Shown here: piece by piece, positions 3,430 through 53,022 of the stretch | Layout: the number at the start of each line of letters is the position of its first letter | How positions within the stretch are numbered: the first letter of the stretch is position 1 | NCBI GenBank assembly: GCA_045639065.1 | Contig: JAZUCK010000016.1 | Span: 7,705-71,704 of the forward strand | Direction: 5' to 3' | Length of the DNA: 64,000 nucleotides | DNA from: Alphaproteobacteria bacterium | Lineage (GTDB): Bacteria > Pseudomonadota > Alphaproteobacteria > RF32 > CAG-239 | Notes under the pieces: generated by a model | The model's database searches: none | What the model was told of the DNA's origin: nothing | Seen by the model: the letters and a program-made list of their open reading frames with translations, nothing else | Program-made: the position numbers and the translations under genes

Positions 3430-4362
3430 ATGACTTCGGGGTTAAAAAAATCGATTGCATTGCACCTGGCATTTTTATTGCTATGGATTATTGAAGTGCC
3501 CATGTTTTGGTGGAACAAAACAGATGCGGGGCAAGTGCCGATTATTGTCGATTTGAAAGATGTTAAAATCTCGGAAATGACTAATCTTCCACCAAAAGCT
3601 AAGTTTGGTAAAGAAGATAAGGAAGCTTCTCAGGTTAAACGAAAAATTGAGAAAAAATACACCAAAGAAGAAGCTTCTGCACCGGTGGAAGAAAAAAAAG
3701 AAATAAAAGAAGAAAAACCTAAAGAGGATAAAAAACAAGAAGCGGTTGCCGAAGAAAAGCCTAAAAAGGACTTTTTGGTTGCTCCTCAACCTAAAAAACC
3801 ACAATTGAAAAAAACACCAAAGAAGGAACAACCGAAGAAAAAGCAACAGCAAAAGAAAAAGGTCGAAAAGGAAAAGAAAAAAGATGAGCCACAGTTGGCT
3901 AATCCGTTGAAGAGTTTGTTGGCCAGTGTTGATGCTTTGGAAAAAGAGACAAATAAATCACAAACGGCTACTATTAAAGAAGGAACTGATGTGGCTAATA
4001 TGGGGGTTGAAGGCGGAACAGCCGGTTCGTATTTTAGCGAATTGTCAATCTCGGAAATGGATGCTTTAGCCGGACAACTTAGGGCTTGTTGGAATCTCGA
4101 TCCCGGTGCTATGGGTATTGAAGATATGATAATTGAGATTAAGGCACAGCTTAATCAAGACGGTGGTGTTTATTCGGTAGAGATTATGAATAAGGGACGA
4201 TATGCTACGGATACGCATTTTCGCTCGGTTGCAGATAGTGCGGTAAGGGCGGTTCATATTTGTGCACCGTATAAGATATTGTCGGAGAAATATGCTGAAA
4301 AATATGATGAATGGCGAGTTTTGCGTTTGAGGTTTAATCCGATTGACCAGTCGGTGAAATAA
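3430..4362 (+). CDS. tolA: TolA-like (or TonB-like) envelope-spanning protein with Lys/Glu/Pro-rich central linker
   Basis: An N-terminal TM is followed by a long KE-rich helical linker and a C-terminal globular domain. It lies immediately downstream of tolQR. Confidence 0.6.
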   Translation: MTSGLKKSIALHLAFLLLWIIEVPMFWWNKTDAGQVPIIVDLKDVKISEMTNLPPKAKFGKEDKEASQVKRKIEKKYTKEEASAPVEEKKEIKEEKPKEDKKQEAVAEEKPKKDFLVAPQPKKPQLKKTPKKEQPKKKQQQKKKVEKEKKKDEPQLANPLKSLLASVDALEKETNKSQTATIKEGTDVANMGVEGGTAGSYFSELSISEMDALAGQLRACWNLDPGAMGIEDMIIEIKAQLNQDGGVYSVEIMNKGRYATDTHFRSVADSAVRAVHICAPYKILSEKYAEKYDEWRVLRLRFNPIDQSVK

Positions 4363-4390
4363 CAAACTATGATTATTTATAAAAAAGTGC

Positions 4391-4420
4391 TTGATTTATA
4401 AAATATTTTTTTGTAATAAT
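4391..4420 (+). promoter_or_regulatory. sigma70-like promoter for tRNA-Trp (-35 TTGATT, 17-nt spacer, -10 TAATAA)
   Basis: The hexamers fit consensus with 17-bp spacing, about 14 nt upstream of the tRNA 5' end. Confidence 0.4.
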
Positions 4421-4433
4421 TAGTTCGCACGAT

Positions 4434-4509
4434 AGGGGTATAGCTCAGTTGGTAGAGCACCGGTCTCCAAAACCGGGTGTCGTGAGTTCGAATCTTACTG
4501 CCCCTGCCA
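4434..4509 (+). tRNA. trnW: tRNA-Trp (anticodon CCA)
   Basis: The sequence is nearly identical in architecture to E. coli tRNA-Trp. It has an AGGGGTA acceptor stem, a CTCCAAA anticodon loop, a GTTCGAATC T-arm and a 3' CCA. Confidence 0.9.
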
Positions 4510-4542
4510 AAAAAAAGCCACCTTTTAAGGTGGTTTTTTTAT
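4510..4542 (+). terminator. Rho-independent terminator (gccacctt ttaa ggtggc + T8)
   Basis: A perfect hairpin followed by a T-run sits directly after tRNA-Trp. Confidence 0.8.
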
Positions 4543-4728
4543 TGGCAATAGGGGATGTTAGGTTCGAACTCACGAAGAAAGTGAGTTTGACAAGGAAGAC
4601 AAGGTGTGCGGAAGCCCACCGGTCAACGAAGTTGATGTCTGACGAAGCAACTCGAGCAAAAGCGAAGAGTAATCTTACTGCCCCTGCCAAAAAAAAGCCA
4701 CCTTTTAAGGTGGTTTTTTTTGGTTTGA
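4541..4728. repeat. tRNA-Trp 3'-end scar: inverted degenerate copy of tRNA 3' end (4541-4577, minus) plus direct copy of last 19 nt of tRNA and the whole terminator (4671-4728)
   Basis: The segment aatcttactgcccctgccaaaaaaaagccaccttttaaggtggttttttt occurs twice, at 4491-4540 and 4671-4728. The reverse complement of 4546-4577 matches cgtgagttcgaa...cccct..gccaa of the tRNA 3' end. Confidence 0.7.
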
Positions 4729-4787
4729 GAAAGCTGAGTTATTGATGTAGCTTTAGTGAAAAAACTTTTATAGAATGTAAAAAAATA

Positions 4788-6341
4788 TTGAATTTGTCGG
4801 TGACTTTTTTTAAAATCCGAACAGTATATCATAATAAAGTAATTTATATTTTTGAGAGATTGTCTGTGAATTTTTTTAAGAAAATAGCTCTATATTTATT
4901 TATTGTTTCAGTTCTTTTTTTAACAATTGTTCCGATAAGTATTTATGATCACTTTGGTCAAATAAGTATAGAGAGTATGATGTTTCATATTGCTATGCCT
5001 AAAAAAGGTATGGCAAATGATTGGTTTATTTTATCGTATATGGAATTGTTGTTTGTTTTTATTTTTTCTGTTGTACTGTTTATCAGTATATTAAAATTTG
5101 AAAAACAAAGAGTTTTTTTGATAATTTTACTTATATCTGTGTCAATATTTGATATTTATTATATTAATTATAATTTTTCGTTATGGAAATATATCGTAAG
5201 CCAATATGAAGCCTCAGATTTTATTGAAAAAGAATATATAGATCCTAAAAAAATATCAGTTACGTTTCCTTTGAAAAAACAGAACCTTATTTTTATACAG
5301 GTTGAATCTATGGAAGCATCTATGCAAGATGTCAAAAGTGGAGGATTGGCTGATAAAAATTATATTCCTGAATTAACGAAGTTGGCAGAAGATAATATTA
5401 ATTTTTCTGCATCTGAATTGACCGGAGGGGCAATAGTTTTGCCTGAAACAGGTTGGACAATGGGTGCACTTGTTGCCGAAACTGCCGGTATTCCATTAAA
5501 ATCGTATAGAATACATAAGGTTTTTGATCAGGTAGGTAATTCTTTTGATAAATATGATTCATTTTTAACAAAAGTTGTGTCACTGGGTGATATCTTAAAA
5601 TCATCGGGTTATGAAAACTATTTTATATTGGGAACTTCAAAATATTTTGCAGGACAAAATATTTATATGGAAAATCACGGAGTGCATGAAATATATGACT
5701 ATGAATTTATAAAGAAAGATATGGGTGTCGAAAAGCCGGAAAAAAGTTGGTGGGGACTTTTAGATAGAGATGTTTATAATTTTTCTAAAAAGAAGCTATC
5801 GGAAATTTCTAAAGGACAATATCCGTTTTCTGTTATTATACAGACGATAGACACTCATCGTAACGGTTTCTTAAATCCTGAATGCAAGGCAAAACATAAT
5901 GAGCTTATAAAAAATGTATATTCTTGTGTATCAGCTGAATTAGATAAATTTATTTCGTGGATAAAGAAACAAGACTTTTATTCAAATACGACCATTGTTA
6001 TTGTGGGTGATCATTATAATATGACCAAAGGATTGTTTAATACGAGCGTAAATTTAAAAACCGGATTTTATGAAGGAACTCAACGAAGTGTATATAATGC
6101 ATTTATTAATTCTCGCAACAGGCCAAAACAAGAAAAAAATCGATTGTTTTCGACTATGGATATATTCCCGACAACATTGTCGGCCTTAGGTGTAAAAATA
6201 GAAGGAAATCGTTTGGGGTTGGGAACAGATTTGTTTTCGGGTGATAAAACACTTTTAGAAAAATATGGTTATAATTATTTGCATAATGAATTGCGAAAAA
6301 AATCAAATTTTTATAATAAACAGCTACTTTTTCCTGATTAA
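4788..6341 (+). CDS. LtaS/OpgB-like membrane sulfatase-family phosphoglycerol or phosphoethanolamine transferase
   Basis: N-terminal multi-TM region is followed by an alkaline-phosphatase/sulfatase-like domain (TIDTHRNGF, IVIVGDHYN motifs). The start codon is uncertain. Confidence 0.55.
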   Translation: MNLSVTFFKIRTVYHNKVIYIFERLSVNFFKKIALYLFIVSVLFLTIVPISIYDHFGQISIESMMFHIAMPKKGMANDWFILSYMELLFVFIFSVVLFISILKFEKQRVFLIILLISVSIFDIYYINYNFSLWKYIVSQYEASDFIEKEYIDPKKISVTFPLKKQNLIFIQVESMEASMQDVKSGGLADKNYIPELTKLAEDNINFSASELTGGAIVLPETGWTMGALVAETAGIPLKSYRIHKVFDQVGNSFDKYDSFLTKVVSLGDILKSSGYENYFILGTSKYFAGQNIYMENHGVHEIYDYEFIKKDMGVEKPEKSWWGLLDRDVYNFSKKKLSEISKGQYPFSVIIQTIDTHRNGFLNPECKAKHNELIKNVYSCVSAELDKFISWIKKQDFYSNTTIVIVGDHYNMTKGLFNTSVNLKTGFYEGTQRSVYNAFINSRNRPKQEKNRLFSTMDIFPTTLSALGVKIEGNRLGLGTDLFSGDKTLLEKYGYNYLHNELRKKSNFYNKQLLFPD

Positions 6342-6467
6342 AAATGTTTAATGTTAAGGTACAGACTTAATGTCGTTACAGTATTAGAAATTTTGTGATT
6401 ATGGTTTTTTATTGAAAGTAATACTTTATTGATATAACGTTATTATGTTTTTTTATATACGGAGGTT

Positions 6468-7403
6468 ATGGTGTTAAAGCTTATTTTACCAGAAGAGAAA
6501 TATTGGAATTCGTTTATGTCCGGTGTTGAGGAGTTAAAAAAGTCTCCCACACCATATGATACGATAGGAATGAAAGCCGGTTTAAATTTTGATAATTTTG
6601 CCGATTATAAGCTTGATTGCGAAAACAATCGATTAGGTATAGGCTTAAAAGAGGGCTGGGTATCTTATAGCAGATTGTGGTTGATAGAAGATGAAAGATT
6701 TGTCGGTGTTTTTGATTTGCGCCACAGCCTTACCGAATATCTGAAAAAAGAGGGCGGTAATGTTGCCTATTATATTATTCCTTCGGCCAGAGGCAGAGCT
6801 TTGGCTCAAGAGGGACTGAAGCTTTGTTGCAAATATGCTCATGAGGTTTTGGGACTTAAAGAAGTTTTGGTTACTTGTAACGCCTTAAATATTGCGTCGT
6901 ACAAAACTATGAAAAAAGTTATGTATGCACATGGCGGATCAGAGGCGTCCCCTATTATGCTTGGAGAAAAGGAAGAAAAAAGAGTATGGATAAAAACCGA
7001 AGCCAAATGGGGAAGAATAAGATCTTTGGCGGTTGCTGTTATAAAAAAAGGCAGCAAGGTTTTAGCAATCAGATGTTATGATGATATTAAAAAACAAACT
7101 TTTTATCGATTGATTGGCGGTGGTATCGAGTTTTGGGAAAAAGGCGAAGATACAATAAAAAGAGAGTTTAATGAGGAGCTCGGATTTGAACCGATAAATA
7201 TTAAATATTTTAAGACGGTTGAGAATATTTTTGAGTTTAACGGCAAAAAAGGTCATGAGATAGTTTTGGCATATCAGGCTGAATTACCGGAGAATATGCT
7301 TGATAATGAAAAATTTTATATGATGGAAGATTTTTTGAATGGCCGATATGCCGAATTTGTTGACATAGAAGGTAATTTAATTTATCCGGAAGATATATTA
7401 TAG
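6468..7403 (+). CDS. GNAT acetyltransferase - NUDIX hydrolase fusion protein
   Basis: The N-terminal half is a GNAT-like fold. The C-terminal half carries a clear Nudix box (GGGIEFWEKGEDTIKREFNEELGF). Confidence 0.6.
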   Translation: MVLKLILPEEKYWNSFMSGVEELKKSPTPYDTIGMKAGLNFDNFADYKLDCENNRLGIGLKEGWVSYSRLWLIEDERFVGVFDLRHSLTEYLKKEGGNVAYYIIPSARGRALAQEGLKLCCKYAHEVLGLKEVLVTCNALNIASYKTMKKVMYAHGGSEASPIMLGEKEEKRVWIKTEAKWGRIRSLAVAVIKKGSKVLAIRCYDDIKKQTFYRLIGGGIEFWEKGEDTIKREFNEELGFEPINIKYFKTVENIFEFNGKKGHEIVLAYQAELPENMLDNEKFYMMEDFLNGRYAEFVDIEGNLIYPEDIL

Positions 7404-7407
7404 AACT

Positions 7408-7677
7408 ATGGAACTTAATAAAATGAAAAATTTTAATTATATTACTAATGGTGTTTGTTCGACTAATATCAATTTTGATATAGATAACGGCAAGATTTAT
7501 AATGTAAAATTTAACGGTGGTTGCATGGGAAATTTGAGTGCTGTTGCAAAGTTGGTTGAAGGCAAAAATGCTCAGGAAATTGCCGATGTTTTGCGCGGAA
7601 ATGACTGTAGAGGTAAGGGAACTTCTTGTGCAGATCAACTTTCTAGAGCTATTGATGCGGCTTTGAAAGAATTTTAA
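7408..7677 (+). CDS. TSCPD-domain small protein (TIGR03905-like)
   Basis: 89 aa with the motif GKGTSCADQL and conserved Cys spacing. It starts 4 bp after the upstream stop. Confidence 0.55.
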   Translation: MELNKMKNFNYITNGVCSTNINFDIDNGKIYNVKFNGGCMGNLSAVAKLVEGKNAQEIADVLRGNDCRGKGTSCADQLSRAIDAALKEF

Positions 7678-7735
7678 TAGAACTAAAAATTTTTAATGTT
7701 TTTAAATGTCAGAGCATCTGTTTTTGAGGAAGGAT

Positions 7736-8197
7736 ATGATAAAAGTTTTATTTGTGTGTCTCGGAAATATTTGTCGTTCGCCAATGGCAGAGTTCGTATT
7801 TAAGCAAATGGTTGAAGAGCGAGGTTTATCAGATAAGTTTGAAATTGATTCAGCTGCTACCGAAAGTTATAATGAAATGTGTCATGCCGGAATTCATTAT
7901 GGAACACGCGAGATATTAACCTCGATGCACATACCTTTTGAAGAACATTACTCTCGTCGTATTCGTGTAACTGATTATGCTTATTATGATTATATTTTGG
8001 CGATGGATGATAGCAATATTGATGATATTCAATCTATAGTCGGTATTGATAACGACAATAAAATACATCGTTTATTAGATTTTGCAAAAAATCCTCGTAA
8101 TATAAAAGATCCTTGGTATACCGGTAATTTTGATGAAACTTATTGGGATATCGTTGAAGGCTGTGATGCTTTTTTGCAATATTTGAATCTGAAATAA
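7736..8197 (+). CDS. low-molecular-weight protein-tyrosine phosphatase / ArsC-like
   Basis: The P-loop VLFVCLGNICRSPMAE (CX5R) sits at the N-terminus and a DPWYT-like D-loop is present. An RBS gaggaagg precedes the ATG at 7736. Confidence 0.8.
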   Translation: MIKVLFVCLGNICRSPMAEFVFKQMVEERGLSDKFEIDSAATESYNEMCHAGIHYGTREILTSMHIPFEEHYSRRIRVTDYAYYDYILAMDDSNIDDIQSIVGIDNDNKIHRLLDFAKNPRNIKDPWYTGNFDETYWDIVEGCDAFLQYLNLK

Positions 8198-8229
8198 TAG
8201 GTCTGTTGAATAATAAAGGTAGTATTTGA

Positions 8230-9045
8230 ATGTTTAAGGCAATAAATTTTAATGATGATATTTTAAGTTCACCTGATTTTAAGAACGATGAAATTTCTTT
8301 TAGTTTGATACCTTCGTTGATTAGGAACAAAGATAGATATCCGGAAATAAAATGTTTTTCTGACGGTAAAGATTGTGTGATGCTAAATACCGACGCCAAT
8401 CATCCGGTTGTTATTTGGACAAGTAAGAGTTTTAATAATTATGAGGGGTTATATTCTTTTTTGACTGAAACTTTTTCCGATAACACACCTTTAATGGTTA
8501 CCACAAAACCCGAAGTCTATCAGTTTTTCAAAAATAACAATCGACTTGCCGACAGCCAAGATACCAAAATTCTCGGAGCTTATAAGTGCGATAAGTTAAA
8601 CCATATTGAAAAAAGCGGATATATAGATTCTGCAAAGGCGGAAGAAAAAGAAATAATTGCTAAAATGATTGAGGCTTTTGAAAAAGAGGCATTGCCGGAA
8701 GAAAAACATCCTTACTCATATTATTTGGAACAAGCTGATAGATATATTAAAATTAAAGATATGAATAAAATTTGGCGAGATGAAAACGGCAATATAACTT
8801 CTATCGGTCATATCAAGACTGTTGATACAACAGCAAGAATAAGTCAAATATACACATTGCCGGATAAAAGAGGAAAATCGTATGCTAAAATGTTAGTTAG
8901 TGAATTGGCCGAAATCATACTGAAAAATGATTTAACTCCGGTTTTATATACTAATTTTCAATATGAACCGTCAAATAGGTGTTATAAAGCAGTCGGATTT
9001 GAATTGTTGGATACAATTTATACTTTTAAGCTAAAAAAGGTTTAG
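8230..9045 (+). CDS. hypothetical protein, possible C-terminal GNAT-like acetyltransferase fold
   Basis: The C-terminal third resembles an acyl-CoA N-acyltransferase core (…RGKSYAKMLVSELAEI…NRCYKAVGFEL). Confidence 0.35.
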   Translation: MFKAINFNDDILSSPDFKNDEISFSLIPSLIRNKDRYPEIKCFSDGKDCVMLNTDANHPVVIWTSKSFNNYEGLYSFLTETFSDNTPLMVTTKPEVYQFFKNNNRLADSQDTKILGAYKCDKLNHIEKSGYIDSAKAEEKEIIAKMIEAFEKEALPEEKHPYSYYLEQADRYIKIKDMNKIWRDENGNITSIGHIKTVDTTARISQIYTLPDKRGKSYAKMLVSELAEIILKNDLTPVLYTNFQYEPSNRCYKAVGFELLDTIYTFKLKKV

Positions 9046-9124
9046 ATAAGTAAAACCTGTTTTGAAGGATGTTTTTGAGTGGTGTCCTGATGCATGTTGC
9101 AATTTGTGATATCACATAAACAAA

Positions 9125-9160
9125 AAAACAGTGAGAAAAAGTTTTCTCACTGTTCTTGAC
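9125..9160. terminator. bidirectional Rho-independent terminator (aacagtgagaaa aagt tttctcactgtt)
   Basis: A perfect 12-bp stem lies between convergent ORFs and is flanked by A and T runs. Confidence 0.7.
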
Positions 9161-9174
9161 TTTAGATTGACCTA

Positions 9175-10422
9175 TCAGGCAACAGCCATTGCAATTTTGG
9201 CTTGGACACCTGCTGTTTGAGGCACACCTAAACTCTCTTGCAAGAAGTTCGACAAATTAGATGCCGAAATTGCTTGTTTTGGGATTCCGAAGGTGCTTGA
9301 AAGATATCCTTTCAAAGCCTCCCCAAACTCCATGACGACATGCTCTGGAGCTCCTAAAAACAACTCTTGCACGACGAGATATCCTCCAGGAATATCTTCC
9401 TTTCCGTAAAATTCGATGTACGAGCAAGCATACACGTCATCCGGATTGGTGATATTTACCTGTGGGTTTGACATCGCCACCATACTGTCTCCCCATTGAG
9501 GAATGCAGCCGATGAAGTCGCCAAACAAGTGACACCATACGTATCTAGCGGCTTTTGCAATGAAAATAGCTCGGCCATCTTCAGCAACTGAATAGAATTC
9601 GTATCTTTTGAAGAATTCTTCTTGAGATACTTCCCATCCGCCGTTACCTCCTTCGCAATAGTCAACAAACCATGCACCGTTGCCTTTTGCGATTTCTTGA
9701 GCTTCGTAAGCACCAAAGGTATGAGCCATAATGAACTCGCCTTCTTCGCTTAACCGAGCGTAAATAGGACGCAATGCATTCTTAATAGCAATGCTTGCAT
9801 TTCCTCGTTTACGCATTTCATCGTAAGCCATTTTTTTGAAGTTTACACCAACGGTGAACTTGCGATTTTTCTCGTTGTATAAATAACGAGGAACCTCTAC
9901 AAGCTCAGTACCATTGTGAGCAATATACTCCAATGTTTCATAAGTGCCTTCGCTTTCCGCGGTAATGTAGCCAAGATTATCAGCTTCCATTTCTTCGCGT
10001 TCGTAGCGTGAAACAAGATAGTACTTATTTCCTTTTTCGTCGTGCCAAAGTATGCCTGTGAGAGGTACAAATTGGGTGACGATTTCGCCGTTGCTTAGAG
10101 CAATAGCAGGGTTTTCGCTTTTCTTCAAAACTTTCGCAACTTTTTCTGGATTAGTTGAGTTGATCAACTTTGCCCAGTTTCCGTTTCCGTCTGTGAAGAA
10201 ACTTGAAAGAACCTTTTTGCCATCGCGGATAACAACCGGAGTTCCGTCGCTGTCGAAAGTTACATAACTTTTAACGCCCATTTGAATGGCCTCATTTGTG
10301 TTTGCAACAAGTGCATACTCATAACCTGCACGGTCAAAAAATTTTGTTTTCATAATGAATAAAAAAATTAGTAATTGGGCTTTAGTCCTTTGATCTTGCT
10401 TGCCTAAGGTAAGAGGACACAT
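9175..10422 (-). CDS. hypothetical protein (about 392-415 aa); possible start at internal Met (10353)
   Basis: A long intact ORF with no recognisable motif. It contains a Cys/His/Asp-rich segment (WCHLFGDFIGC). Confidence 0.45.
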   Translation of the reverse strand: MCPLTLGKQDQRTKAQLLIFLFIMKTKFFDRAGYEYALVANTNEAIQMGVKSYVTFDSDGTPVVIRDGKKVLSSFFTDGNGNWAKLINSTNPEKVAKVLKKSENPAIALSNGEIVTQFVPLTGILWHDEKGNKYYLVSRYEREEMEADNLGYITAESEGTYETLEYIAHNGTELVEVPRYLYNEKNRKFTVGVNFKKMAYDEMRKRGNASIAIKNALRPIYARLSEEGEFIMAHTFGAYEAQEIAKGNGAWFVDYCEGGNGGWEVSQEEFFKRYEFYSVAEDGRAIFIAKAARYVWCHLFGDFIGCIPQWGDSMVAMSNPQVNITNPDDVYACSYIEFYGKEDIPGGYLVVQELFLGAPEHVVMEFGEALKGYLSSTFGIPKQAISASNLSNFLQESLGVPQTAGVQAKIAMAVA

Positions 10423-10512
10423 TTAATATATTTACATCTTTAATAATATCATGTTTTTTTAGTCTACGCAAGGGGGAATAAATCGGTGATATTTGAAAGC
10501 CTTTTAATTGCC

Positions 10513-10748
10513 AAGTTATTGAAAAATATAGAAAGCTAGTTCGAAGATGGTGGAAAATAGGTGGCTGGATTGGGTACTCCCGCTCATAATCTTCGCGGGT
10601 CCTCCTCGCGTCGTAGGGCTCGCACGTCGTTTTACTTGTGCTTGCCAACTATCCGCTCCGAACCAAGTTGCTTCGCCTCAAAACCACACTCAATCCAACA
10701 AAAAAATCCTCCATAAAGGAGGACTTTTTTGTTGGCTGGAGACGACTT
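10513..10748 (+). repeat. about 230-bp GC-rich structured direct repeat, copy 1, ending in intrinsic terminator (aaaaaaatcctccataaaggaggactttttt)
   Basis: It is about 93% identical to 11746-11972. Long-range complementarity (tggattggg...ctcaatcca) plus internal hairpins suggest a folded RNA. Confidence 0.6.
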
Positions 10749-10834
10749 GCAATCTGCGAAATTAAAACCTTGATTTTCACTCTAAAATATGGTAATATCA
10801 GACTAGTAAGATAACTGTTTGGGAGCAAAATATC

Positions 10835-11620
10835 ATGATAAATGAGCCAGATTATAATATAAGCATTAGAGATGGTGGTGAAATTATCATGATGCGTCAT
10901 AAAGATTTTGCTGTATTTTCCGGAAACTATGAGACAGACGATAAATTTAGAGAATTTTGTGATATTTTGTTACTTAAAAGTAAAAATCGAAAGTGTATTC
11001 CAGAGAAAAGAGATACCCCTTGTTTTGAAGTTAAAACCACCATTTCTTCTGTAGAACGTGATAATGATGGTGCTATTAGAGTAAATGTTCCTAAAAATCC
11101 TTTTATGGGCTCTTTTGCTGTAAACTCTGATGATTTTCAATTTTCTGAAGGTCAAAATGTTTGGTATACAGATTCTAATCCACCCAAAATGCTTATTGGA
11201 GATGAAAAAAAATCTACAATAATTATTCAGCATTATAAAATGGGTTGGATGAGTAAGAATAAATATGATTATTATCAATTAAATGAAGCATCTAGAGCCA
11301 TATATGATGTACTAATAAAAGAAACTGATCATAATAAATTATATTCGTATTTACAAGATGTTGAAAAAATTTATAATGGAGAAGATGCGACATTTCTTTC
11401 TAGTAAATCTAATGAGTATAGAGAAAAGGCTACAGCTTTAGCAGAGGAATATAAAAAGATTAATAGAAAATCAATAATGAGAAAAGGTGAATTTTGTTTA
11501 ATGCATCCAGAAGATGTTAATGATTCTGGTATTGTGCAATCTGCTAAGGACTATGTTCCCTCTCATATAGCAACTTCTTTAAAATTACCTAATACCATAT
11601 TAAAAGGAAGATCTGTGTAG
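10835..11620 (+). CDS. hypothetical protein (261 aa) bracketed by the 230-bp direct repeats
   Basis: An intact ORF with no recognisable domain. A terminator hairpin follows at 11649-11676. Confidence 0.45.
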   Translation: MINEPDYNISIRDGGEIIMMRHKDFAVFSGNYETDDKFREFCDILLLKSKNRKCIPEKRDTPCFEVKTTISSVERDNDGAIRVNVPKNPFMGSFAVNSDDFQFSEGQNVWYTDSNPPKMLIGDEKKSTIIIQHYKMGWMSKNKYDYYQLNEASRAIYDVLIKETDHNKLYSYLQDVEKIYNGEDATFLSSKSNEYREKATALAEEYKKINRKSIMRKGEFCLMHPEDVNDSGIVQSAKDYVPSHIATSLKLPNTILKGRSV

Positions 11621-11648
11621 TATTTATTTGCTGTAATACACTTTTAAT

Positions 11649-11685
11649 AACCTACTGTCCTTAACATCAGTAGGTTATTTTTTTA
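11649..11685 (+). terminator. Rho-independent terminator (aacctactg ...cagtaggtt + T-run)
   Basis: A 9-bp stem and T7 run lie 29 bp after the stop of the 261-aa ORF. Confidence 0.6.
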
Positions 11686-11745
11686 TTCAACCTATGCAAA
11701 AATTTACATAGGTTCTTTTTCTGCTCAAAAAGGCTAAAATTTACT

Positions 11746-11972
11746 AAGTTATTGAAAAATATAGAAGCAAGTTCGAAGATGTTGTAAAATAGGTGGCTGG
11801 ATTGGGTACTCCCGCTCATAATCTTCGCGGGTCCTCCTCGCGGCGTAGGGCTCGCACGTCGTTTTACTTGTGCTCACCAACTATCCGCTCCGAACCAAGT
11901 TGATTCGCCTTAAAACCACTCTCAATCCAACAAAAAAATCCTCCATGAAAGGAGGATTTTTTTGCTGGCTGG
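11746..11972 (+). repeat. about 230-bp GC-rich structured direct repeat, copy 2, overlapping the 3' end of tRNA-Gln
   Basis: See copy 1. Its terminator hairpin (11925-11962) abuts the minus-strand tRNA-Gln. Confidence 0.6.
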
Positions 11973-12040
11973 GGTGGCTGGATTCGAACCAACGAATGAC
12001 GATACCAAAAACCGTTGCCTTACCACTTGGCGACACCCCA
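11966..12040 (-). tRNA. trnQ: tRNA-Gln (anticodon TTG)
   Basis: The reverse complement is TGGGGTGTCGCCAAGTGGTAAGGCAACGGTTTTTGGTATCGTCATTCGTTGGTTCGAATCCAGCCACCCCAGCCA. This nearly matches the E. coli tRNA-Gln(UUG) architecture. Confidence 0.9.
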
Positions 12041-12200
12041 ATAATATTTTATGTTCTTATCTCAGCCACTGGTGGCTGGATTGTGCGCCCGCTTCGCACT
12101 GCGCATCTTTCGCTGATTGCTCAAGACCGCCTCTCTTCTTTCGGCGTCCAACTGCGAATTACTTCGCAATTCTTGTTAGTCAAACCAAGCAAATTACGAA

Positions 12201-12240
12201 ACCAAAACTGTTTTCTCTACCACTTGGCGACACCCCAATA
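12201..12240 (-). pseudogene. degenerate duplicate of the 5' ~40 nt of tRNA-Gln
   Basis: Positions 12217-12240 (ctaccacttggcgacaccccaata) repeat 12019-12042 exactly. The upstream 16 nt are a degraded match. Confidence 0.55.
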
Positions 12241-12386
12241 TTTGGGCTCTCATTATGAGAACAGGCTTATATGTAAATTAAAATAAATATAATTGCAAGC
12301 ACTTTTTTATTATTGTGATAATTTTTTTTATTATTTTTACTAACAGTCATTCAGATACTTTATAAGTTTGCCGTAATTTATATATG

Positions 12387-13463
12387 CTAACGGTCTATGT
12401 CTATTGAAGCAAGTTGTATATTGCGTAGATTTTTATTTTGCATTGTGTTGTTTTCATTTAATGTCGGTGTTTGTGTGTTTTCTTGTATATCATTTTGCGT
12501 AATATTTTTGATGTTTTGCTTGTATTGTTTGTTGTCTTTTTTCATTTTTTCTATTGTATCTTTTGAATTTTTATTAGTTTGTTGAGTGTTGTTTAAATGC
12601 GTATGGTTGGTCGTTTGTCGTTTATTAACTCTATTCTCAAAAATGGTGGTATTATTTTTATATTTTTCAGCCATAGCCATTAAATATTGAGTATCTTTAA
12701 GCTCGGAAGAATTATTATTATGAGGCAGATTACGCATTGATTGGTTATAAGGGACATCACCTATTTCTTTACCGCTTAGGTCGTAAAAAGTAATTTGTCC
12801 GATATCATCACAAGTAACAATTTGTTGTCCAAAAGGTTTGCCATCAAGTGTTACGGAAAACCCTTTTATCTGTTGGCCGTTTTTTTCAAGCATTTCGTTC
12901 TTTATCTCAACGGTATGTTTGTTTAAATCTATTTCTTTTCCCATGTTGTACAACTTCATGTTTTGGATATTGCCCTCTGAGTCATAGAGGACCATAGCTC
13001 CATGTCTTTTTTTATTAACCATACTTACCATAACATGATTACCCTTGTCATCGTCGATTGTTCTAATCTCGGAAGTGAGAACTTCATCATCAAAATAGGA
13101 TACAAGATCTATATCTAAAGAATTAGATCTTTTTTGTTCCTCCAAATATTTTTTTACGCCTTCATCTGTATCAACACTATCGCAAATATAAGATAATTCT
13201 TCCGGTAATAATTGATCCTTAAATTGTTCGCAAAGTTGTGTAGATAATATAGAACGTTGATACTCAGTCATATCGGTTTTGATTATGCTATTGATCATTC
13301 TGTTTGCTAAAAAGGGAGCGTCTAAAAATATTAAGCCATATTTATCGGCAATCTCTCGTTCATCAGAAGTTAAATTTAAGAATTCATATTTCTCTTCATC
13401 GGTAAGAGGTTCAACTTCACACATATCTTTCATTGCGTTTAATTTTTCTGTTAATGTTGTCAT
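12387..13463 (-). CDS. hypothetical protein with long Asn/Gln/Thr/Lys-rich low-complexity C-terminal tail
   Basis: A 358-aa intact ORF. The C-terminal 110 aa are N/Q/T/K-rich (NNTQQTNKNSKD...), a eukaryote-like low-complexity feature. It is divergent from the Hsp70-like gene. Confidence 0.5.
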   Translation of the reverse strand: MTTLTEKLNAMKDMCEVEPLTDEEKYEFLNLTSDEREIADKYGLIFLDAPFLANRMINSIIKTDMTEYQRSILSTQLCEQFKDQLLPEELSYICDSVDTDEGVKKYLEEQKRSNSLDIDLVSYFDDEVLTSEIRTIDDDKGNHVMVSMVNKKRHGAMVLYDSEGNIQNMKLYNMGKEIDLNKHTVEIKNEMLEKNGQQIKGFSVTLDGKPFGQQIVTCDDIGQITFYDLSGKEIGDVPYNQSMRNLPHNNNSSELKDTQYLMAMAEKYKNNTTIFENRVNKRQTTNHTHLNNTQQTNKNSKDTIEKMKKDNKQYKQNIKNITQNDIQENTQTPTLNENNTMQNKNLRNIQLASIDIDR

Positions 13464-13581
13464 TGATTGTCTCCTAATAGCAAATTTATATTCATTATAT
13501 CATAATAAATATATAAAATCAAATTTCTTGACTTTTACTCAGTTTACCTTATTAAGTTCTTTGAACAAAGGAGCAAATGAA

Positions 13582-14850
13582 ATGACTTTTTCTTGCGGAA
13601 TAGATTTTGGAACAACAAATACTATTGCGGCATTGGCTCAAAAAAATGTCCTTCCTTCTTTAGTAACTTTAGAAAATAACAACACGACTCTTCCGAGTGT
13701 GTTGTTTTTTGATAATGATAATAATGTATCTTTCGGAAGAGAAGCATTGGATTTGTATATGAACGGCAAATTAGGACGTTGTATGCGAAGTTTAAAACGA
13801 GTTTTGGGTACCGATTTGATGTCTTCCGGAACTTATATAAACAATAAAAAGGTGTCTTTTACCGATATTTTGAGTTGTTTTTTAAGGAATGTTAAGGGAA
13901 AAACAGATGCTCAAGCCAAAGCCAATGTCGAAAATGTTGTTCTTGGACGTCCGGTTCATTTTCGAGATTTTGACAGTGATGCTGATACAAGAGCTGAGAA
14001 TGAGTTAAGGCAAGTTGCTTTAAATATCGGTTTTAAGAATATTGAGTTTCAATACGAACCGATTGCGGCAGCTTTTGCTCATGAGAGAAATTTATCCAAA
14101 GAAAAGCTGGCTTGTGTTATTGATGTCGGGGGCGGAACCTCGGACTTTACAATTTTGCGTATCGGCAATCAGTTGATGAATAAAATCGACCGAAAAGACG
14201 ATATTTTAGCCAATACCGGTGTAAGAATAGGCGGTAATGATTTTGATAAAGATTTGTCGTTAAAATGTTTTATGAATGCATTTGGTTATGGTTCGTTACA
14301 AGGTGGAAAAACTCAGCATGATAAAATAATCGATTTGCCAAGTGCGCCTTTTCATACTATGGCAGAATGGAGCTCGATTAACTCTATGTACACGTATAAA
14401 GAGCTTAATTTTGCTAAAAAAATGCTGTTTAATGCCGTTGAGCCGGACAAAGTAAGTCGTTTTGTTGAACTGATAGAAAGAGAACTTGGTTATACTTTGT
14501 TAAATGTGGTTGAAAATACCAAAATTGAGCTGACAAATATAAATGAAGTGAGTGTTTTGCTCGATTTTATTTCGGATAAGCCGTCAATTAAGGCAAGCAG
14601 GGCTGATTTTGAAGCATCGTTAAATTGGGATATGAAAAGAGTATTTGAACAAATTGATGAATGTGTTAAGCAAGCTCAAGTTAAAAAAGAGGATATTCAA
14701 TTAGTGGTTTTGACCGGAGGTTCTACCGAAATTCCGCTTATAAAAAATTTGGTTAAACAATATTTTCCTAATGCTGAACTGTCGCAAGAAAATAAATTTT
14801 CCAGCGTCGGTATGGGTTTAGCTTATGACAGTATTAGAAAATTTGGCTGA
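13582..14850 (+). CDS. Hsp70-family ATPase-domain protein (YegD-like, lacks substrate-binding lid)
   Basis: It carries the phosphate-1 motif GIDFGTTNT, the DVGGGTSDF phosphate-2 motif and the actin-like ATPase fold. It is only about 420 aa, with no C-terminal SBD. An RBS aaggag lies 8 nt upstream of the ATG at 13582. Confidence 0.7.
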   Translation: MTFSCGIDFGTTNTIAALAQKNVLPSLVTLENNNTTLPSVLFFDNDNNVSFGREALDLYMNGKLGRCMRSLKRVLGTDLMSSGTYINNKKVSFTDILSCFLRNVKGKTDAQAKANVENVVLGRPVHFRDFDSDADTRAENELRQVALNIGFKNIEFQYEPIAAAFAHERNLSKEKLACVIDVGGGTSDFTILRIGNQLMNKIDRKDDILANTGVRIGGNDFDKDLSLKCFMNAFGYGSLQGGKTQHDKIIDLPSAPFHTMAEWSSINSMYTYKELNFAKKMLFNAVEPDKVSRFVELIERELGYTLLNVVENTKIELTNINEVSVLLDFISDKPSIKASRADFEASLNWDMKRVFEQIDECVKQAQVKKEDIQLVVLTGGSTEIPLIKNLVKQYFPNAELSQENKFSSVGMGLAYDSIRKFG

Positions 14851-42575: not shown

Positions 42576-45500
42576 ATGAAAGAATCTTATACGAGCAAAA
42601 GACGTGTAAGAAGAAACTTTGGCCGAATCGACGCTGTTGCCGATATGCCGAGTTTAATCGAAGTTCAAACCGGTTCTTATAACAACTTTATTCAAGCAAA
42701 TGGTGCTGAAAAATGTGAATTCGGTTTGGAAGAAGTTTTCAAATCTATTTTCCCTATCAGAGATTTTTCCGGAAACGGCGAATTGGAGTTTGTTAAATAT
42801 GAGCTCGAAACTCCTAAATATGACGTTGATGAATGTATCAAACGTGATATGACTTTTGCTGCTCCGGTTAAAGCAACTTTGCGTCTTGTTGTTTGGGATA
42901 CTGACGAAGCTACCGGTGCTAAGTCTATCCACGACATTAAAGAACAAGATGTTTATATGGGTGATATTCCGCTTATGACCGAAAAAGGTACTTTTATCTT
43001 TAACGGTACAGAGCGTGTAGTTGTTTCACAAATGCACCGTTCTCCCGGTGTGTTCTTTGATCATGATAAAGGTAAGACTGTTTCTTCAGGTAAATATTTG
43101 TTTGCCGCCAGAATCATTCCTTATCGCGGTTCTTGGCTCGATTTTGAATTTGATGCCAAAGATTTGGTTTATGCCAGAATCGATCGCCGTCGTAAATTGC
43201 CGGTTACTTCGGTTTTGTATTCTTTGTATTCTAAAGAAACAATGGAAAAAATTGCTCAACTCGAAAAAGAAGGTAAGCATATCGATCCGGCTGAAGTTAA
43301 AGGTATGGATAAAGAAGAAATTTTGCATTATTTCTATGATGTTGATACTTATGAATTGGCTAAAAAAGAATGGAAGGTTAAATTTGAACCTCAACGCATG
43401 AAAGGTATCAAATTTGACTTTGATTTGGTTAATGCCGAAACAGGTAAAGTTGTTTTGGAAGCCGGCAAAAAATTGACTTCTCGTAATGCTCAAAAGTTGG
43501 CTGATGATGGTTTGGCTTATTATAAGTTGGCAAAAGACAAAGTTTTGGGTAAATTCTTGGCTAACAATATCGTTGTTTCTAAGACAGGCGAGGTTTTGGC
43601 CGAGGCCGGTGATGAAATCACTGAAGAATTGCTTGAAAAATTTAGTGCTAACAAAATCAATGAAATCAAAATTTTGTTCATTGATGGTATAAATGTCGGT
43701 CCATATATCCGTAATACTTTGGCAGTTGATAAGAACTCTTGCCGCGAAGAAGCTCTTTTGGATATTTATCGTGTTATGCGTCCCGGTGATCCTCCGACGT
43801 ATGATGCAGCTGATTCTTTGTTCAAGGCTTTGTTCTTTGATAAAGACAGATACGATTTGTCATCTGTGGGTCGTGTTAAAATAAATACAGCTTTGGATAT
43901 TTCTTTTGACGAAGCTCCGGATACTTATGGCATTTTGCGTAAAGACGACATTCTACGTATTGTAAAACGCATGGTTGAATTGCGTGACGGTAAAGGCGAA
44001 GTTGATGATATTGACCACTTGGGTAACCGTCGTGTTCGCTCTGTGGGTGAATTAATGGAAAATCAATATCGCATGGGCTTGCTCAGAATGGAAAGAGCAA
44101 TTAGAGAGAGAATGTCTTCTGAAAACCTTAATAATGTTAAACCGCAAGATTTGGTTAATGCTAAACCTATTGCTTCGGTTATCAGAGAGTTCTTCGGTTC
44201 TTCTCAATTGTCACAATTTATGGACCAAAACAACCCGTTGTCAGAAATTACTCACAAACGTCGTTTGTCTGCATTGGGTCCCGGCGGTTTGAGCCGTGAT
44301 CGTGCAGGCTTTGAAGTTCGTGACGTGCATCCGACACATTATGGTCGTATTTGTCCTATTGAAACTCCTGAAGGTCCGAACATCGGTTTGATTAACTCTT
44401 TGTCAACATATGCTCGTATTAACAAATATGGCTTTATTGAATGTCCGTATCGTAAAGTTGTTGATGGCGTTGTTACTTCTGAGGTTGTTTATTTGTCAGC
44501 CAACGAAGAGGGTAAATTTATTATCGCCGAAGCTAATGCCAAAGTTAAAGACGATGGTCATTTTGTAAATGAATTGGTAGCTTGTCGTAAGGCTGGTGAA
44601 TTTGAATTTGCAAGACCTGAAGAAATCAACTTTATCGACGTTTCTCCAAAACAGTTAGTGTCTGTTGCTACAGCTCTTATTCCGTTCTTGGAAAACGACG
44701 ACGCCAACCGTGCATTGATGGGTTCAAACATGCAACGTCAAGGTGTGCCTTTGCTTCGTTCGGAAGCTCCGCTCGTTGGTACAGGTGTTGAAGCTGTTGT
44801 AGCTAAAGACTCAGGTGCTACCGTAGTATGTAAGGCTGATGGTATTGTTGACGCTGTTGACGCAAACCGTATCGTTGTTCGTTCTAAAGATGAACACGCA
44901 GCTAATGCCGGTGTTGAAATTTATCGTTTGGCTAAATTCCGCCGTTCTAACCAAAATACCTGCATTAACCAAATTCCTTTGGTAAAAGTCGGTGATGAAG
45001 TTAAAGAAGGCGATATCTTGGCTGACGGTCAATGTACAGATATGGGTGAATTAGCATTAGGTAAAAACGTTTTGGTAGCATTTATGCCATGGAACGGTTT
45101 GAACTACGAAGATGCTATTTTGCTTTCTGAAAGAATTTCTCGTGATGACGTATTTACTTCACTTCATATTGAAGAATTTGAAGTTATGGCTCGTGATACA
45201 AAACTCGGTCAAGAAGAAATCACTCGTGATATTCCAAACGTCGGTGAAGATGCTTTGCGTAACTTGGATGAAGCCGGTATTGTTTATATTGGTGCCGAAG
45301 TTAAAGCCGGTGATATTTTGGTCGGTAAAGTTACTCCGAAGGGTGAATCTTTGGTAACTCCGGAAGAAAAATTGCTCCGCGCTATCTTTGGTGAAAAAGC
45401 TTCTGATGTTCGTGATACATCTTTGCGTGTTCAACCTGGTATTGAAGGTATCGTTGTTGACGTTCACGTATTCTCAAGACGCGGCGTTGAAAAAGACGAA

Positions 45501-46751
45501 CGTGCTTTGTCTATTGAACAACAAGAAATTTCTCAACTTGCAAAAGACCGTGATGACGAAATTGCTATTATTCGTCGCAACGTCGAAGCACGTATGAAGA
45601 CAATGCTTGTAGGTCAAACAGTTGTTGATGCTCCAAAAGGTACTTTGGCTAAAAATTCAAAAATTGAAGCTAAAGATTTGGATGGTATTCCGTCATCTCA
45701 ATGGCGCAAAATCGTTGTTAAAGATGAAGCTGTTATGGCTAATATGGAAGAATTGTTGGCTGCTTTTGATCAAAGAGTTGAAAAAGTTCAACAACACTTC
45801 GATAACAAGGTTGAAAAAGTACAACGTGGTGATGACTTGTTACCAGGCGTTTTGAAAATGGTTAAAGTATTTATTGCTACAAAACGTAAGATTCAATCAG
45901 GCGATAAGATTGCCGGACGTCACGGTAACAAAGGTACTATTTCTCGTGTATTGCCATTACAAGATATGCCGTACATGGAAGATGGTACACCGGTTGATAT
46001 CGTGTTGAACCCGTTGGGTGTGCCTTCACGTATGAACGTGGGACAAATTTTGGAAACTCACTTGGGTTGGGCTGCTAAAAAACTTGGCCAACAAGTTAAT
46101 GAATTGTGGGAACAAGTTAAGGCCGGCAATAAGAAAGAAGCTGATTTGAGAGCTAAGTTGAAAGAAGTTTATGGCGAAAAGCAATATAAGCAACAAATCG
46201 AACATATGACTTCTGAAGATTTAGACTTGATGATTCCTAACCTTAAAAACGGTATTCCGATGGCTACTCCGGTATTCGACGGTGCAACTGGTGATGATAT
46301 TAACCAAATGTTGTCTATGGCCGAATTACCGACATCAGGACAAATTGATTTGTACGATGGTCGTACAGGTGAAAAATTTGACCGTAAAGTTACCGTTGGT
46401 ATTATCTATATGATTAAACTTCACCACATCGTTGATGAAAAAATGCACGCTCGTTCTGTCGGACCTTACTCTTTGGTTACTCAACAACCTTTGGGTGGTA
46501 AAGCTCAGTTCGGTGGTCAACGTTTCGGTGAAATGGAAGTTTGGGCTTTGCAAGCTTATGGTGCTGCTTATACCTTGCAAGAAATGTTAACAGTCAAATC
46601 AGATGACGTTAACGGTCGTACTAAGGTTTATGAGGCTATTGTAAGAGGCGAAGATACATTCGAATCAGGCATTCCTGAGTCATTTAACGTATTGACTAAG
46701 GAAATTAAGTCTTTGTGTTTGAATGTCGAACTTTTGAACGAAGAAATTTAA
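42576..46751 (+). CDS. rpoB: DNA-directed RNA polymerase subunit beta
   Basis: 1391 aa with conserved RpoB blocks (…[11 protein letters not shown]…, …NMQRQ…, …GDK…GRHGNKG…). Confidence 0.95.
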
Positions 46752-46765
46752 GGTAAAGGAGTTAG

Positions 46766-50917
<4,152 letters not shown>

Positions 50918-51001
50918 CTAGAGCAATTTTACGGGGTAGCCAAAAATTCATGTACTATTTGTGTACACTAAAATTTTTGGCTCCCCTAGAAATCACTCTA
51001 T
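50918..51001. repeat. Palindromic MITE-like repeat element, copy B, inserted immediately after rpoC stop codon
   Basis: About 80% identical to 1492-1574. It is flanked by a 21-bp direct duplication (ttcatctaatgaataactaga at 50902-50922 and 51027-51047) that includes the rpoC stop codon. Confidence 0.6.
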
Positions 51002-51139
51002 TTAAAACATTATCTGAATTTTCTCATTCATCTAATGAATAACTAGATGGCAAATTGATTGCTTAAAAAGTTTAAATTGGGCAATTTGCAAGAAAAGGTG
51101 TCATATTTCATAATAAGGCACCTTTTTTGAATGCATAAA

Positions 51140-51176
51140 AAAACAACCTGCTTTTTTATAAAGCAGGTTGTTTAAA
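51140..51176. terminator. bidirectional terminator (aacaacctgctt ttttataa agcaggttgtt)
   Basis: A 12-bp perfect stem lies between convergent rpoC and the HAD hydrolase gene. Confidence 0.75.
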
Positions 51177-51185
51177 TAGTGTTTT

Positions 51186-52037
51186 TTATTGGTTATCCAA
51201 AACATGGTCAGCTTTAATCTTTAGAAGCAATGATTTAACATATTTGTCAATCTTACTTCCTTCAGAATAATCGCCTTCAGCAATCACATTTACACGTTTG
51301 TCATCTAACAGTTTTTCAGCTGTTTTTTTGTTTTTGCCAGGGGTGTAAACACCAATGCAGTGTCCTTGATGTTCTTGCAAAATACTCATACATGGGACGT
51401 CTGTTAATCCGTCGCCCAAGTAGAGCATATGCTTAAACGGAATTCTGATTTTTTCGGTCCGGTTGTTTACAGATTTATCAGTTTCGTCCAGACATCCTTT
51501 GGATATCCGGTAAAGATACTGAGTTTTGTCTGTATAGTTTACAATACGGGCAGGCCAAAAGGCTACACCATTGTCATCGTACATGTATCTGTTTGCATAG
51601 ACACGTGTAAACTTATGACAAATAGACATACCTTCGACCATTTCTGACAAACCGGAAGAGATGAGATAATGCTCAACTCGAATTCCCAGTTTTTTGCCGA
51701 ATTCATTGATTCTGTCAAACCAATTTTCAACTCCGTTAAAATACTTTACATCTCTACCATATGACATAAAGTCTTTCTTGGTTGTTCCTAGCCTTTTCGC
51801 ATATTGCAGAGTTAGGCACATATATGCCAAATTATTATCTGCATTTTGCTCTAGAGCCAGGTCGTCTGACAATGTCCAAAAGTCTTGGACTGTAAGCCCC
51901 ATTTTCTCAATGAAACCATGCTCATGCATGTTTCCAGGAGCTAGTGTTCCGTCAAAGTCATAAAGTAAAGCCACTACTATTTCTTTTGCTTTACCTTGTT
52001 CTTGCACATTTTGTGCTGTTAATCTTTTTGTGCTCAT
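51186..52037 (-). CDS. HAD-superfamily hydrolase (paralog of 15551-16492)
   Basis: It has DFDGTL and GDGLTD motifs and is about 50% identical to the other copy over the core. The start was chosen at MSTKRL. Confidence 0.6.
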   Translation of the reverse strand: MSTKRLTAQNVQEQGKAKEIVVALLYDFDGTLAPGNMHEHGFIEKMGLTVQDFWTLSDDLALEQNADNNLAYMCLTLQYAKRLGTTKKDFMSYGRDVKYFNGVENWFDRINEFGKKLGIRVEHYLISSGLSEMVEGMSICHKFTRVYANRYMYDDNGVAFWPARIVNYTDKTQYLYRISKGCLDETDKSVNNRTEKIRIPFKHMLYLGDGLTDVPCMSILQEHQGHCIGVYTPGKNKKTAEKLLDDKRVNVIAEGDYSEGSKIDKYVKSLLLKIKADHVLDNQ

Positions 52038-52951: not shown

Positions 52952-52971
52952 TGTGCAATCCTGATAAAATT

Positions 52972-53002: not shown

Positions 53003-53022
53003 TAGTTTTTTTGCAAGAATTT

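Follow-up and report, generated by a model that had tools for sequence, protein, structure and literature searches.

The protein domains that concern us here all come from well-known superfamilies, and our analysis does not overturn current knowledge of them. They were found together in a 64,000-nt stretch of DNA (hereafter the window, meaning the whole stretch that was analyzed), in which a GNAT acetyltransferase fused to a Nudix hydrolase is encoded next to a stand-alone TSCPD protein and a low-molecular-weight protein-tyrosine phosphatase (LMW-PTP). For the GNAT half of the fusion, the closest described systems are the SpeG/RimL/MccE-type enzymes (Acetyltransf_3). Motif A of GNATs (Q/R-x-x-G-x-G/A) is the acetyl-CoA pyrophosphate-binding loop. 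The Nudix half is closest to the compact MutT-type enzymes, namely MutT itself, Arabidopsis thaliana NUDX1 (AtNUDX1), human NUDT15 and Streptococcus pneumoniae 2pqv. Several Nudix subfamilies can be told by additional signatures, such as a Pro or Tyr about 16-18 residues past the Nudix box, the sequence SQPWPFPxS or the NuCoA motif before the box. The phosphatase has its counterparts in YfkJ of Bacillus subtilis and PtpA of Staphylococcus aureus, and the related YwlE, which is of the phosphoarginine (pArg) type, has a Thr in its P-loop. The TSCPD protein belongs with the proteins of NCBIfam family TIGR03905; the scaffolds of SufU, IscU and NifU-N and the C-domain of lipoate-protein ligase resemble it weakly (E 0.004-0.03). 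TSCPD domains are also found at the C-terminus of class II ribonucleotide reductases, and the Cys-rich C-terminal domain of one such reductase, NrdJ, binds zinc and shuttles electrons (PMC5704485). This domain may correspond to Pfam TSCPD and serves only as a lead. The only relevant paper that names the TSCPD domain does so once, in passing, and our literature search returned nothing on stand-alone TSCPD proteins, on the function of their family or on this GNAT-Nudix fusion.

The GNAT half shares with the SpeG/RimL-type enzymes a profile match over the gathering score and a predicted fold that superposes on theirs, and the consensus of its own family retains motif A. However, its identity to solved GNATs is only 11-17%, it has no sequence match in the PDB, it possesses an additional helical N-terminal arm of ~65 residues, and it is joined to a Nudix domain. 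The complete Nudix box, a size of ~130 residues and the best sequence and fold matches link the other half to the compact MutT-type enzymes, from which it is set apart by an identity of 20-29%, by its position C-terminal to a GNAT and by a downstream motif, ENIFEFNG-x2-GHEI, that is specific to the fusion family. With the TIGR03905 proteins the TSCPD protein shares a score over the cutoff, four invariant Cys residues and a length of ~84 aa. It is shorter than SufU and IscU (84 aa vs ~130-150 aa), it has four Cys instead of three Cys plus an Asp or His, and, unlike the TSCPD domain of class II ribonucleotide reductases, it is not attached to a reductase and, within this clade, is encoded 3' of a GNAT(-Nudix) gene. 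The phosphatase has the CLGNICRS P-loop and the DPWY sequence in common with YfkJ and PtpA and shows no notable difference from them, which makes it an ordinary member of its family.

The fusion gene occupies positions 6468-7403 of the window (+, an open reading frame (ORF) of 311 aa), the TSCPD gene 7408-7677 (+, 89 aa) and the LMW-PTP gene 7706/7736-8197 (+, 163/153 aa, depending on the start). The gaps of 4 bp between the first two genes and of 58 bp, or 28 bp from the upstream start, between the second and the third are as reported in a preliminary description of this DNA, and its assignment of GNAT-NUDIX, TSCPD and LMW phosphatase domains was borne out by our Pfam and NCBIfam profile searches. 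It missed a second GNAT gene (8230-9045, +, 271 aa, with an FR47/Acetyltransf_1 match in the C-terminal half), which is co-oriented with the others and lies 32 bp 3' of the phosphatase gene, so that the run comprises four genes: GNAT-Nudix fusion, TSCPD, LMW-PTP and second GNAT. The overall explanation that we find most probable is that the fusion and TSCPD genes are a conserved unit coding for a sanitation- or detoxification-type enzyme and a Cys4 accessory protein, and that the LMW-PTP gene is a frequent but variably oriented neighbor of this unit.

The fusion and TSCPD genes in related genomes

We gathered the contexts of related genes (loci L001-L178) via genome, metagenome and exact-protein look-ups and compared them by tblastn, phmmer and blastn. 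At the fetched loci, the sole DNA that the window shares with most relatives is a two-gene block of 1.2 kb (6455-7679, +), for which the blastn matches start at 6455 or 6472 and end at 7677-7679; the homology ends at the gene boundaries. The identity of this block is 94% in L081-83, 91% in L091, 78% in L001, 75% in L002 and L003, and 72% in L084. In the clade defined by a fusion or GNAT with 65% or more identity to that of the window, every context that contains a fusion has the TSCPD gene directly 3' of it.

The two genes keep their order, orientation and short gap within differing flanks in eight contexts at 65-96% identity (the window, L091, L081-83, L084, L001, L002 with L172-174, L003, and L175). 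In the window, the pair follows a sulfatase-like gene and precedes the LMW-PTP and second GNAT genes. The latter two are also found in L091, where a terminator and an XRE helix-turn-helix (HTH) gene stand between them and the pair; L091 is the only relative in which the second GNAT gene is conserved beside the phosphatase. In L081-83, the pair comes after dnaG-rpoD and, further on, tRNA-Met, and is followed by a terminator and an HTH gene. In L084 it is located between rpoB-rpoC and a HAD gene on the opposite strand, and in L001 it precedes a kinase gene. The arrangement in L002, L003 and L172-174 is fusion, TSCPD, kinase, GNAT, AAA_33 and MazG (opposite strand), a stretch beginning with PPase, Nudix and VIT1, and recA (opposite strand). 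In L175, a Fic gene is found upstream and the LMW-PTP gene on the opposite strand downstream. The block thus occupies at least four chromosomal sites among close relatives. In both close relatives examined for it (L081 and L091), a rho-independent terminator is present directly 3' of the TSCPD gene. Judging from gene order, the fusion and TSCPD genes are a clade-specific but robust two-gene unit, predicted to be bicistronic.

One of these sites is present in the window in an unoccupied form. Positions 1-5939 of L084 correspond to 45170-51129 of the window at 92% identity, and positions 7352-12881 are syntenic with 51220-56890. Between these two regions L084 holds the fusion and TSCPD genes (6002-7216; the insert spans 5940-7351), flanked by two terminators, whereas in the window only 90 bp (51130-51219) separate the rpoC terminator from that of the convergent HAD gene.

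An alternative explanation is that a mobile element or a defense/conflict island carries the cassette as cargo. The differing insertion sites, two of which are just downstream of tRNA-Met (L081 and L089), would fit this explanation, as would the location of the window region between tRNA-Trp and tRNA-Gln genes with duplicated 3' ends and the occurrence of XRE regulators, AbiEii, Fic, an SLFN-like helicase and an AAA_15 ATPase nearby in relatives. However, when the junctions in L084 were compared with the empty site of the window, no integrase or transposase was found, and neither were terminal repeats or a target-site duplication. Furthermore, PADLOC returned only a generic Nudix match (PDC-S07, 28 bits), PHROGs returned only generic domain matches, and the GC content is not sharply different from that of the surroundings. 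We therefore regard the cargo explanation as quite improbable.

The TSCPD gene is also retained near GNAT genes that have no Nudix half. In L089 the order is GNAT, Tag (3-methyladenine glycosylase, on the opposite strand) and TSCPD, and in L171 it is GNAT, an ORF of 145 aa and TSCPD.

The phosphatase gene and its spacing

The product of the third gene matches Pfam LMWPc with an E of 3e-36. Its P-loop, C8-L-G-N-I-C13-R14-S15, is encoded at 7757-7780 (+), and a K-D-P-W-Y loop is also present. The protein matches YfkJ (PDB 4etm) over the full length with an E of 7e-32 and YwlE with an E of 1.7e-6, and the ArsC models score far under their cutoffs. At the position of the P-loop Thr of YwlE, the window protein has an Ile. 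By these sequence features the third gene codes for an LMW-PTP of the YfkJ/PtpA type, predicted to act on phosphotyrosine and to be neither of the pArg (YwlE) type nor an arsenate reductase.

According to the preliminary description, the fusion, TSCPD and phosphatase genes form a probable operon and suggest a small-molecule or protein-modification signaling module. In such a dedicated module, the phosphatase would belong to the pathway of the fusion and TSCPD proteins. Within the window, the three genes are indeed co-oriented, have gaps of 4-19 bp and 58 bp and are not separated by a terminator. The neighborhood of the trio also recurs elsewhere: LMW-PTP orthologs, 81-89% identical to that of the window, are found near the TSCPD gene in six of the ten close-clade contexts, and despite differing outer flanks they lie within 2 kb of it in L091, L175, L171 and L092, with a remnant in L089. 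However, the order and orientation without an internal terminator are found only in the window. The two genes are co-oriented in the window and L091 alone, and in L091 they are parted by the terminator and the XRE gene. In L175 and L092 the LMW-PTP gene is adjacent to the TSCPD gene but convergent with it, and in L171 it is on the opposite strand and one gene away. We did not find it near the TSCPD or fusion gene in L081-83, L084, L001, L002, L003 and L172-174, nor near any of the distant fusions. As for signaling, the phosphatase is an ordinary YfkJ-type enzyme, and among the genes scanned on either side of the window locus there is no bacterial tyrosine kinase (BY-kinase), other kinase or sensor gene. 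A three-gene signaling operon is hence improbable.

A comparison of the spacing points in the same direction. The 58-bp spacer between the TSCPD and phosphatase genes (7678-7735, +) contains no hairpin, whereas a rho-independent terminator followed by an XRE HTH gene is found there in L081 and L091. On both sides of this interval L091 and the window are collinear, but the interval itself measures 602 bp in L091, where it contains the terminator and a 113-aa XRE gene, and 54 bp in the window. What remains of the spacer in the window weakly matches the part of the L091 intergenic region nearest the phosphatase gene. The alignment indicates a derived origin for the 58-bp spacing, by loss of ~550 bp that carried the terminator and the HTH gene. 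A deletion in the lineage of the window is the more economical explanation because both elements are likewise retained in L081-83. With these elements lost, the LMW-PTP gene abuts the TSCPD gene, and its co-transcription by read-through is plausible but would be a derived condition. Being a deletion derivative, the window arrangement speaks against a trio operon. On the evidence of gene order, the LMW-PTP gene is a loose and variably oriented neighbor rather than a member of a fixed operon of three genes. The window illustrates that tight packing made by a deletion in one genome can mimic an operon.

Two of the relatives carry altered copies of the phosphatase gene. The LMW-PTP of L171 (4887-5345, -; 87% identical) reads YPWY in place of the DPWY of the window, so that the predicted general-acid Asp is replaced by Tyr; either an inactive variant or a sequencing error may account for the change. 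In L089, a 3' remnant of 19 codons (ETYWDIVEGCDAFLKHLKL*) is found at 6121-6177 (-), directly upstream of the Tag gene and between the GNAT and TSCPD genes.

The two proteins and their possible role

Because a frameshift between two genes can give rise to a spurious fusion, an artefact of assembly or annotation had been raised as an explanation of the GNAT-Nudix ORF. It would be consistent with the existence of stand-alone GNATs that resemble the N-terminal half. In a search that covered 5.8 billion clusters, 63 such proteins of ~177-180 aa were 41-80% identical to this half, and they terminate at RVWIKT. However, the ORF in the window is uninterrupted, and the same search returned 57 clusters (90% identity) of at least 295 aa, most of them ~310 aa, which originate from independent assemblies, share the length and both domains, and align over both halves at 40-96% identity. 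Moreover, ten species-representative genomes carry the fusion, its AlphaFold2 (AF2) model is a confident two-domain structure, and the ORF that follows the stand-alone GNATs is unrelated to Nudix. The artefact explanation is thus refuted, and the fusion is genuine. The ORF just mentioned (141-145 aa, 3' of the Nudix-less GNAT in L086 and L171) had been a candidate for a decayed Nudix domain; it was rejected on a profile E of 0.016-0.043 with less than 5 bits, and its sequence marks it as an unrelated protein.

The architecture had been called uncommon, with which our numbers agree. When 50%-identity representatives, 1.84 billion in all, were scanned exhaustively with HMMER, only about 6-8 clusters matched contiguously over both halves. 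Nine of the ten records with the fusion among the species-representative genomes are labelled as Alphaproteobacteria or Proteobacteria metagenome-assembled genomes (MAGs), and the lone record labelled Lachnospiraceae is taken as a probable binning error. The GNAT-Nudix architecture is rare and found solely in MAGs of uncultured Alphaproteobacteria from gut and rumen; by exact look-up, the sequence of the window fusion protein itself was not on record. In a neighbor-joining tree of the GNAT halves, the fusion and stand-alone forms interleave throughout, from which it follows that loss or gain of the Nudix half took place on many occasions and that the GNAT half can work alone.

The GNAT half of the fusion comprises residues 1-180 (6468-7007, +) and is SpeG/RimL-like with a helical N-terminal arm. 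Pfam Acetyltransf_3 (PF13302) matches residues 69-151 with 37.5 bits against a cutoff of 25.4, and PF00583 falls just under its cutoff (18.8 vs 20.7). The family consensus of motif A, R-x-K-G-x-A, is canonical and keeps the acetyl-CoA-binding R-x-x-G-x-A. The Nudix half, residues 181-311 (7008-7400, +), is of the compact MutT/NUDX1 type and is matched by Pfam NUDIX (PF00293) over residues 187-277 with 32.4 bits against a cutoff of 21.1. The Nudix box (7119-7187, +), as read from the sequence, is G218-x5-E224-x7-R232-E233-F-N-E236-E237-L-G-F240; it is complete, with GIEFW between G218 and E224 and KGEDTIK between E224 and R232, and G218, E224, R232, E233, E236 and E237 are invariant across 25 homologs.

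The AF2 model of the fusion shows two domains and is confident throughout (pLDDT 91.7, pTM 0.82). Foldseek matched the GNAT half, which has the alpha/beta fold of GNATs, to SpeG, Rv0802c and 1nsl at E ~1e-6 with TMt values of 0.6-0.67, and the Nudix half, an alpha/beta/alpha sandwich, to AtNUDX1, 2pqv, MutT and NUDT15; 2pqv was also found by a phmmer search of the PDB with the fusion (E 4e-5, Nudix half). The matches of long span, which are to NudC-type proteins, superpose poorly (rmsd 14-16 Å), and hence no PDB chain among the Foldseek matches fits both halves.

An ADP-ribose, Ap4A or CoA derivative had been suggested as the substrate of the Nudix half. This is not what its sequence points to. 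No Nudix equivalog of NCBIfam reaches its cutoff, NAD diphosphatase scoring 19 bits against a cutoff of 158. Residues 256-258 are E-F-N, SQPWPFPxS is not present, and the sequence upstream of the box is KKQTFYRLIGGG, not the NuCoA motif. Judged by these motifs, the Nudix half appears to lack the signatures of the ADP-ribose, Ap4A, NADH and CoA subfamilies.

The TSCPD protein matches Pfam TSCPD with an E of 4e-25 and NCBIfam TIGR03905 with 102.6 bits against a cutoff of 67.7. The preliminary description noted that TSCPD domains are usually appended to class II ribonucleotide reductases, but a stand-alone TSCPD protein is not unusual: TIGR03905 is a curated family with at least 513 confirmed metagenome loci. 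In alignments of homologs, which are ~84 aa long, C17, C39, C67 and C74 are invariant. Searches of the PDB by sequence, both single and profile, gave only spurious matches to repeat proteins and no relative. The AF2 model (pLDDT 92) was matched by Foldseek best to SufU (8ztq, probability 0.92-0.98, E 8.5e-3), followed by the LplA C-domain, FiSufU and NifU-like structures (6jom, 6a6f and 5uft among the matches). There is also a weak Pfam Lip_prot_lig_C match, and in an hhalign alignment two of the Cys residues fall on the cluster ligands C37 and C63 of IscU (E 0.027). As these weak signals agree, they suggest a SufU/IscU-like metal-binding fold; we do not claim membership of the family, and none of the fetched loci contained a SufS or IscS partner.

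The SpeG/RimL-like N-acetyltransferase domain of the fusion would acetylate an amine using acetyl-CoA, and the Nudix domain would cleave the diphosphate bond in a (d)NTP-like or another small nucleoside- or organic-diphosphate substrate. Because the Nudix half was repeatedly lost or gained, coupling of the two catalytic halves is probably not obligatory, and obligatory channeling is disfavored. Most likely, the fusion is a bifunctional small-molecule enzyme for metabolite sanitation or detoxification and not for signaling. We propose this role because related genomes place the fusion among house-cleaning genes: its neighbors there include MazG, Nudix and pyrophosphatase-like proteins, P-loop kinases of the AAA_33, SKI and CPT-like types, GNATs, Tag and an HD phosphohydrolase. 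The TSCPD protein, with its putative SufU/IscU fold and four Cys residues, may bind a metal (Zn or Fe-S) and assist the fusion as an accessory protein or redox partner.

Several observations weigh against this explanation. The presence of an LMW-PTP gene by the TSCPD gene in six of ten contexts makes some functional link to the phosphatase possible. In the window fusion and its nearest relatives, motif A reads R108-G-R-A111-L-A113, with Ala replacing the Gly. The match of the TSCPD protein to the SufU fold is weak (E ~1e-2, TM ~0.5), as is the hhalign value given above. The house-cleaning theme is one of guilt by association, as small genes for enzymes cluster in these genomes anyway. Finally, fusions that are at most 64% identical to that of the window (L178, L176, L085, L177 and L004-L010) have no TSCPD gene nearby.

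The last of these observations bears on whether the two genes are coupled at all. Their adjacency could be inherited, clade-specific synteny of two unrelated genes which, at 20 bp apart, are too close to be separated. This is suggested by the distant fusions without a TSCPD gene together with the occurrence of TSCPD genes in 44 other lineages without a conserved partner. In our survey of metagenome loci with a TSCPD gene in other lineages of gut and rumen (78 loci, dereplicated to 48 groups, of which 44 were usable), no neighbor family was common to more than four loci and no general partner could be inferred; the neighbors include an aldo-keto reductase, MgtE, an HD-GYP regulator, rubrerythrin and CorA. 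Likewise, L086-88 have a stand-alone GNAT and no TSCPD gene within 5 kb. On the other hand, the pair stays intact at its four or more chromosomal sites while the surroundings change, and the TSCPD gene stays near the GNAT gene after loss of the Nudix half and the insertion of intervening genes (L089 and L171). We consider mere synteny to be somewhat unlikely and retain the functional unit of fusion and TSCPD as the favored explanation.

A bolder version of it, to which we give little credence, is that the fusion and TSCPD genes are a self-contained relocating module, in which the Cys4 TSCPD protein, with a SufU/IscU fold and the domain also borne C-terminally by class II ribonucleotide reductases, would be the dedicated metal or redox partner of a bifunctional acetyltransferase/pyrophosphohydrolase and might also serve the redox-sensitive LMW-PTP. 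If true, this would be the first functional handle on the widespread stand-alone TSCPD (TIGR03905) family. What is new in any case is a rare and evolutionarily labile architectural variant of known enzyme families, the GNAT-Nudix fusion, and a clade-specific, consistent gene partner for a TIGR03905 TSCPD protein, which provides a starting point for assigning its role.

An unusual concatenation of house-cleaning domains was observed directly 3' of two distant fusions. In L004 (2513-4249) a protein of 578 aa combines an AAA_33 kinase, a pyrophosphatase-like domain and two Nudix domains, and in L006 (6924-9179) a protein of 751 aa has the same domains plus a C-terminal GNAT. These multidomain proteins are followed by a GNAT, a SKI-like kinase and another Nudix.

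Gene starts, signals and other features of the window

The annotated starts of the first two genes are probably too early. Homologs of the fusion are 310 aa long and begin with MLKL, and a GGAGG lies 5 nt ahead of GTG 6471, the probable start, which gives 310 aa. The relatives of the TSCPD protein begin with MKNF, and the start is probably ATG 7423, which gives 84 aa and a gap of 19 bp. For the phosphatase, the ribosome-binding site (RBS) GAGGAAGGA and the N-terminus MIKVLFVC of its orthologs place the predicted start at ATG 7736; the upstream alternative at 7706, which had been described as TTG, reads ATG. In the second GNAT, the ~135 N-terminal residues (8230-8640) have no domain match.

The region upstream of the cassette (6412-6467, +) contains a TTGAAA at 6412-6417, which is a possible -35 element, and the RBS GGAGG at 6461-6465. 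In seven of ten relatives, TTGAAA or TTGCAA is found at an equal distance 5' of the gene. A scan with the sigma-70 consensus called no promoter upstream of the fusion gene, promoter-like sites being no more common than in shuffled sequence, and the TTGAAA is thus only promoter-like. A search of 4300-12400 against Rfam returned two tRNAs only, with no riboswitch or other Rfam element upstream of the fusion gene. The four-gene run is closed by a bidirectional terminator-like hairpin at 9117-9164. It is the first such hairpin after the start of the fusion gene, bar a weak match inside that gene (6752-6768), which is taken as chance.

Both tRNA genes that flank the region have repeats in their vicinity. 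In the tRNA-Trp region (4434-4720), the 3' end of the gene and its terminator (4491-4540) are perfectly duplicated 180 nt downstream (4671-4720), and an inverted copy of the 3' arm is found at 4550-4575. The sequence pattern resembles a scar left by an integration or excision at this gene. On the other side, an ORF of 261 aa (10835-11620, +) without a Pfam match is enclosed by two direct repeats of 198 nt that are 92% identical (10533-10730 and 11765-11962). They adjoin the tRNA-Gln gene (11966-12040, -), part of which is duplicated at 12192-12240, and the whole segment 10533-12240 may be another insertion at a tRNA gene. Neither the 261-aa ORF nor an ORF of 415 aa at 9175-10422 (-) has a match in Pfam, NCBIfam, PADLOC or PHROGs. 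Further downstream, an ORF of 358 aa (12387-13463, -) without a Pfam match overlaps the 5' end of a 523-aa Hsp70/MreB-like ORF (13279-14850, +) by 185 bp; the start of one of the two has probably been called too early.

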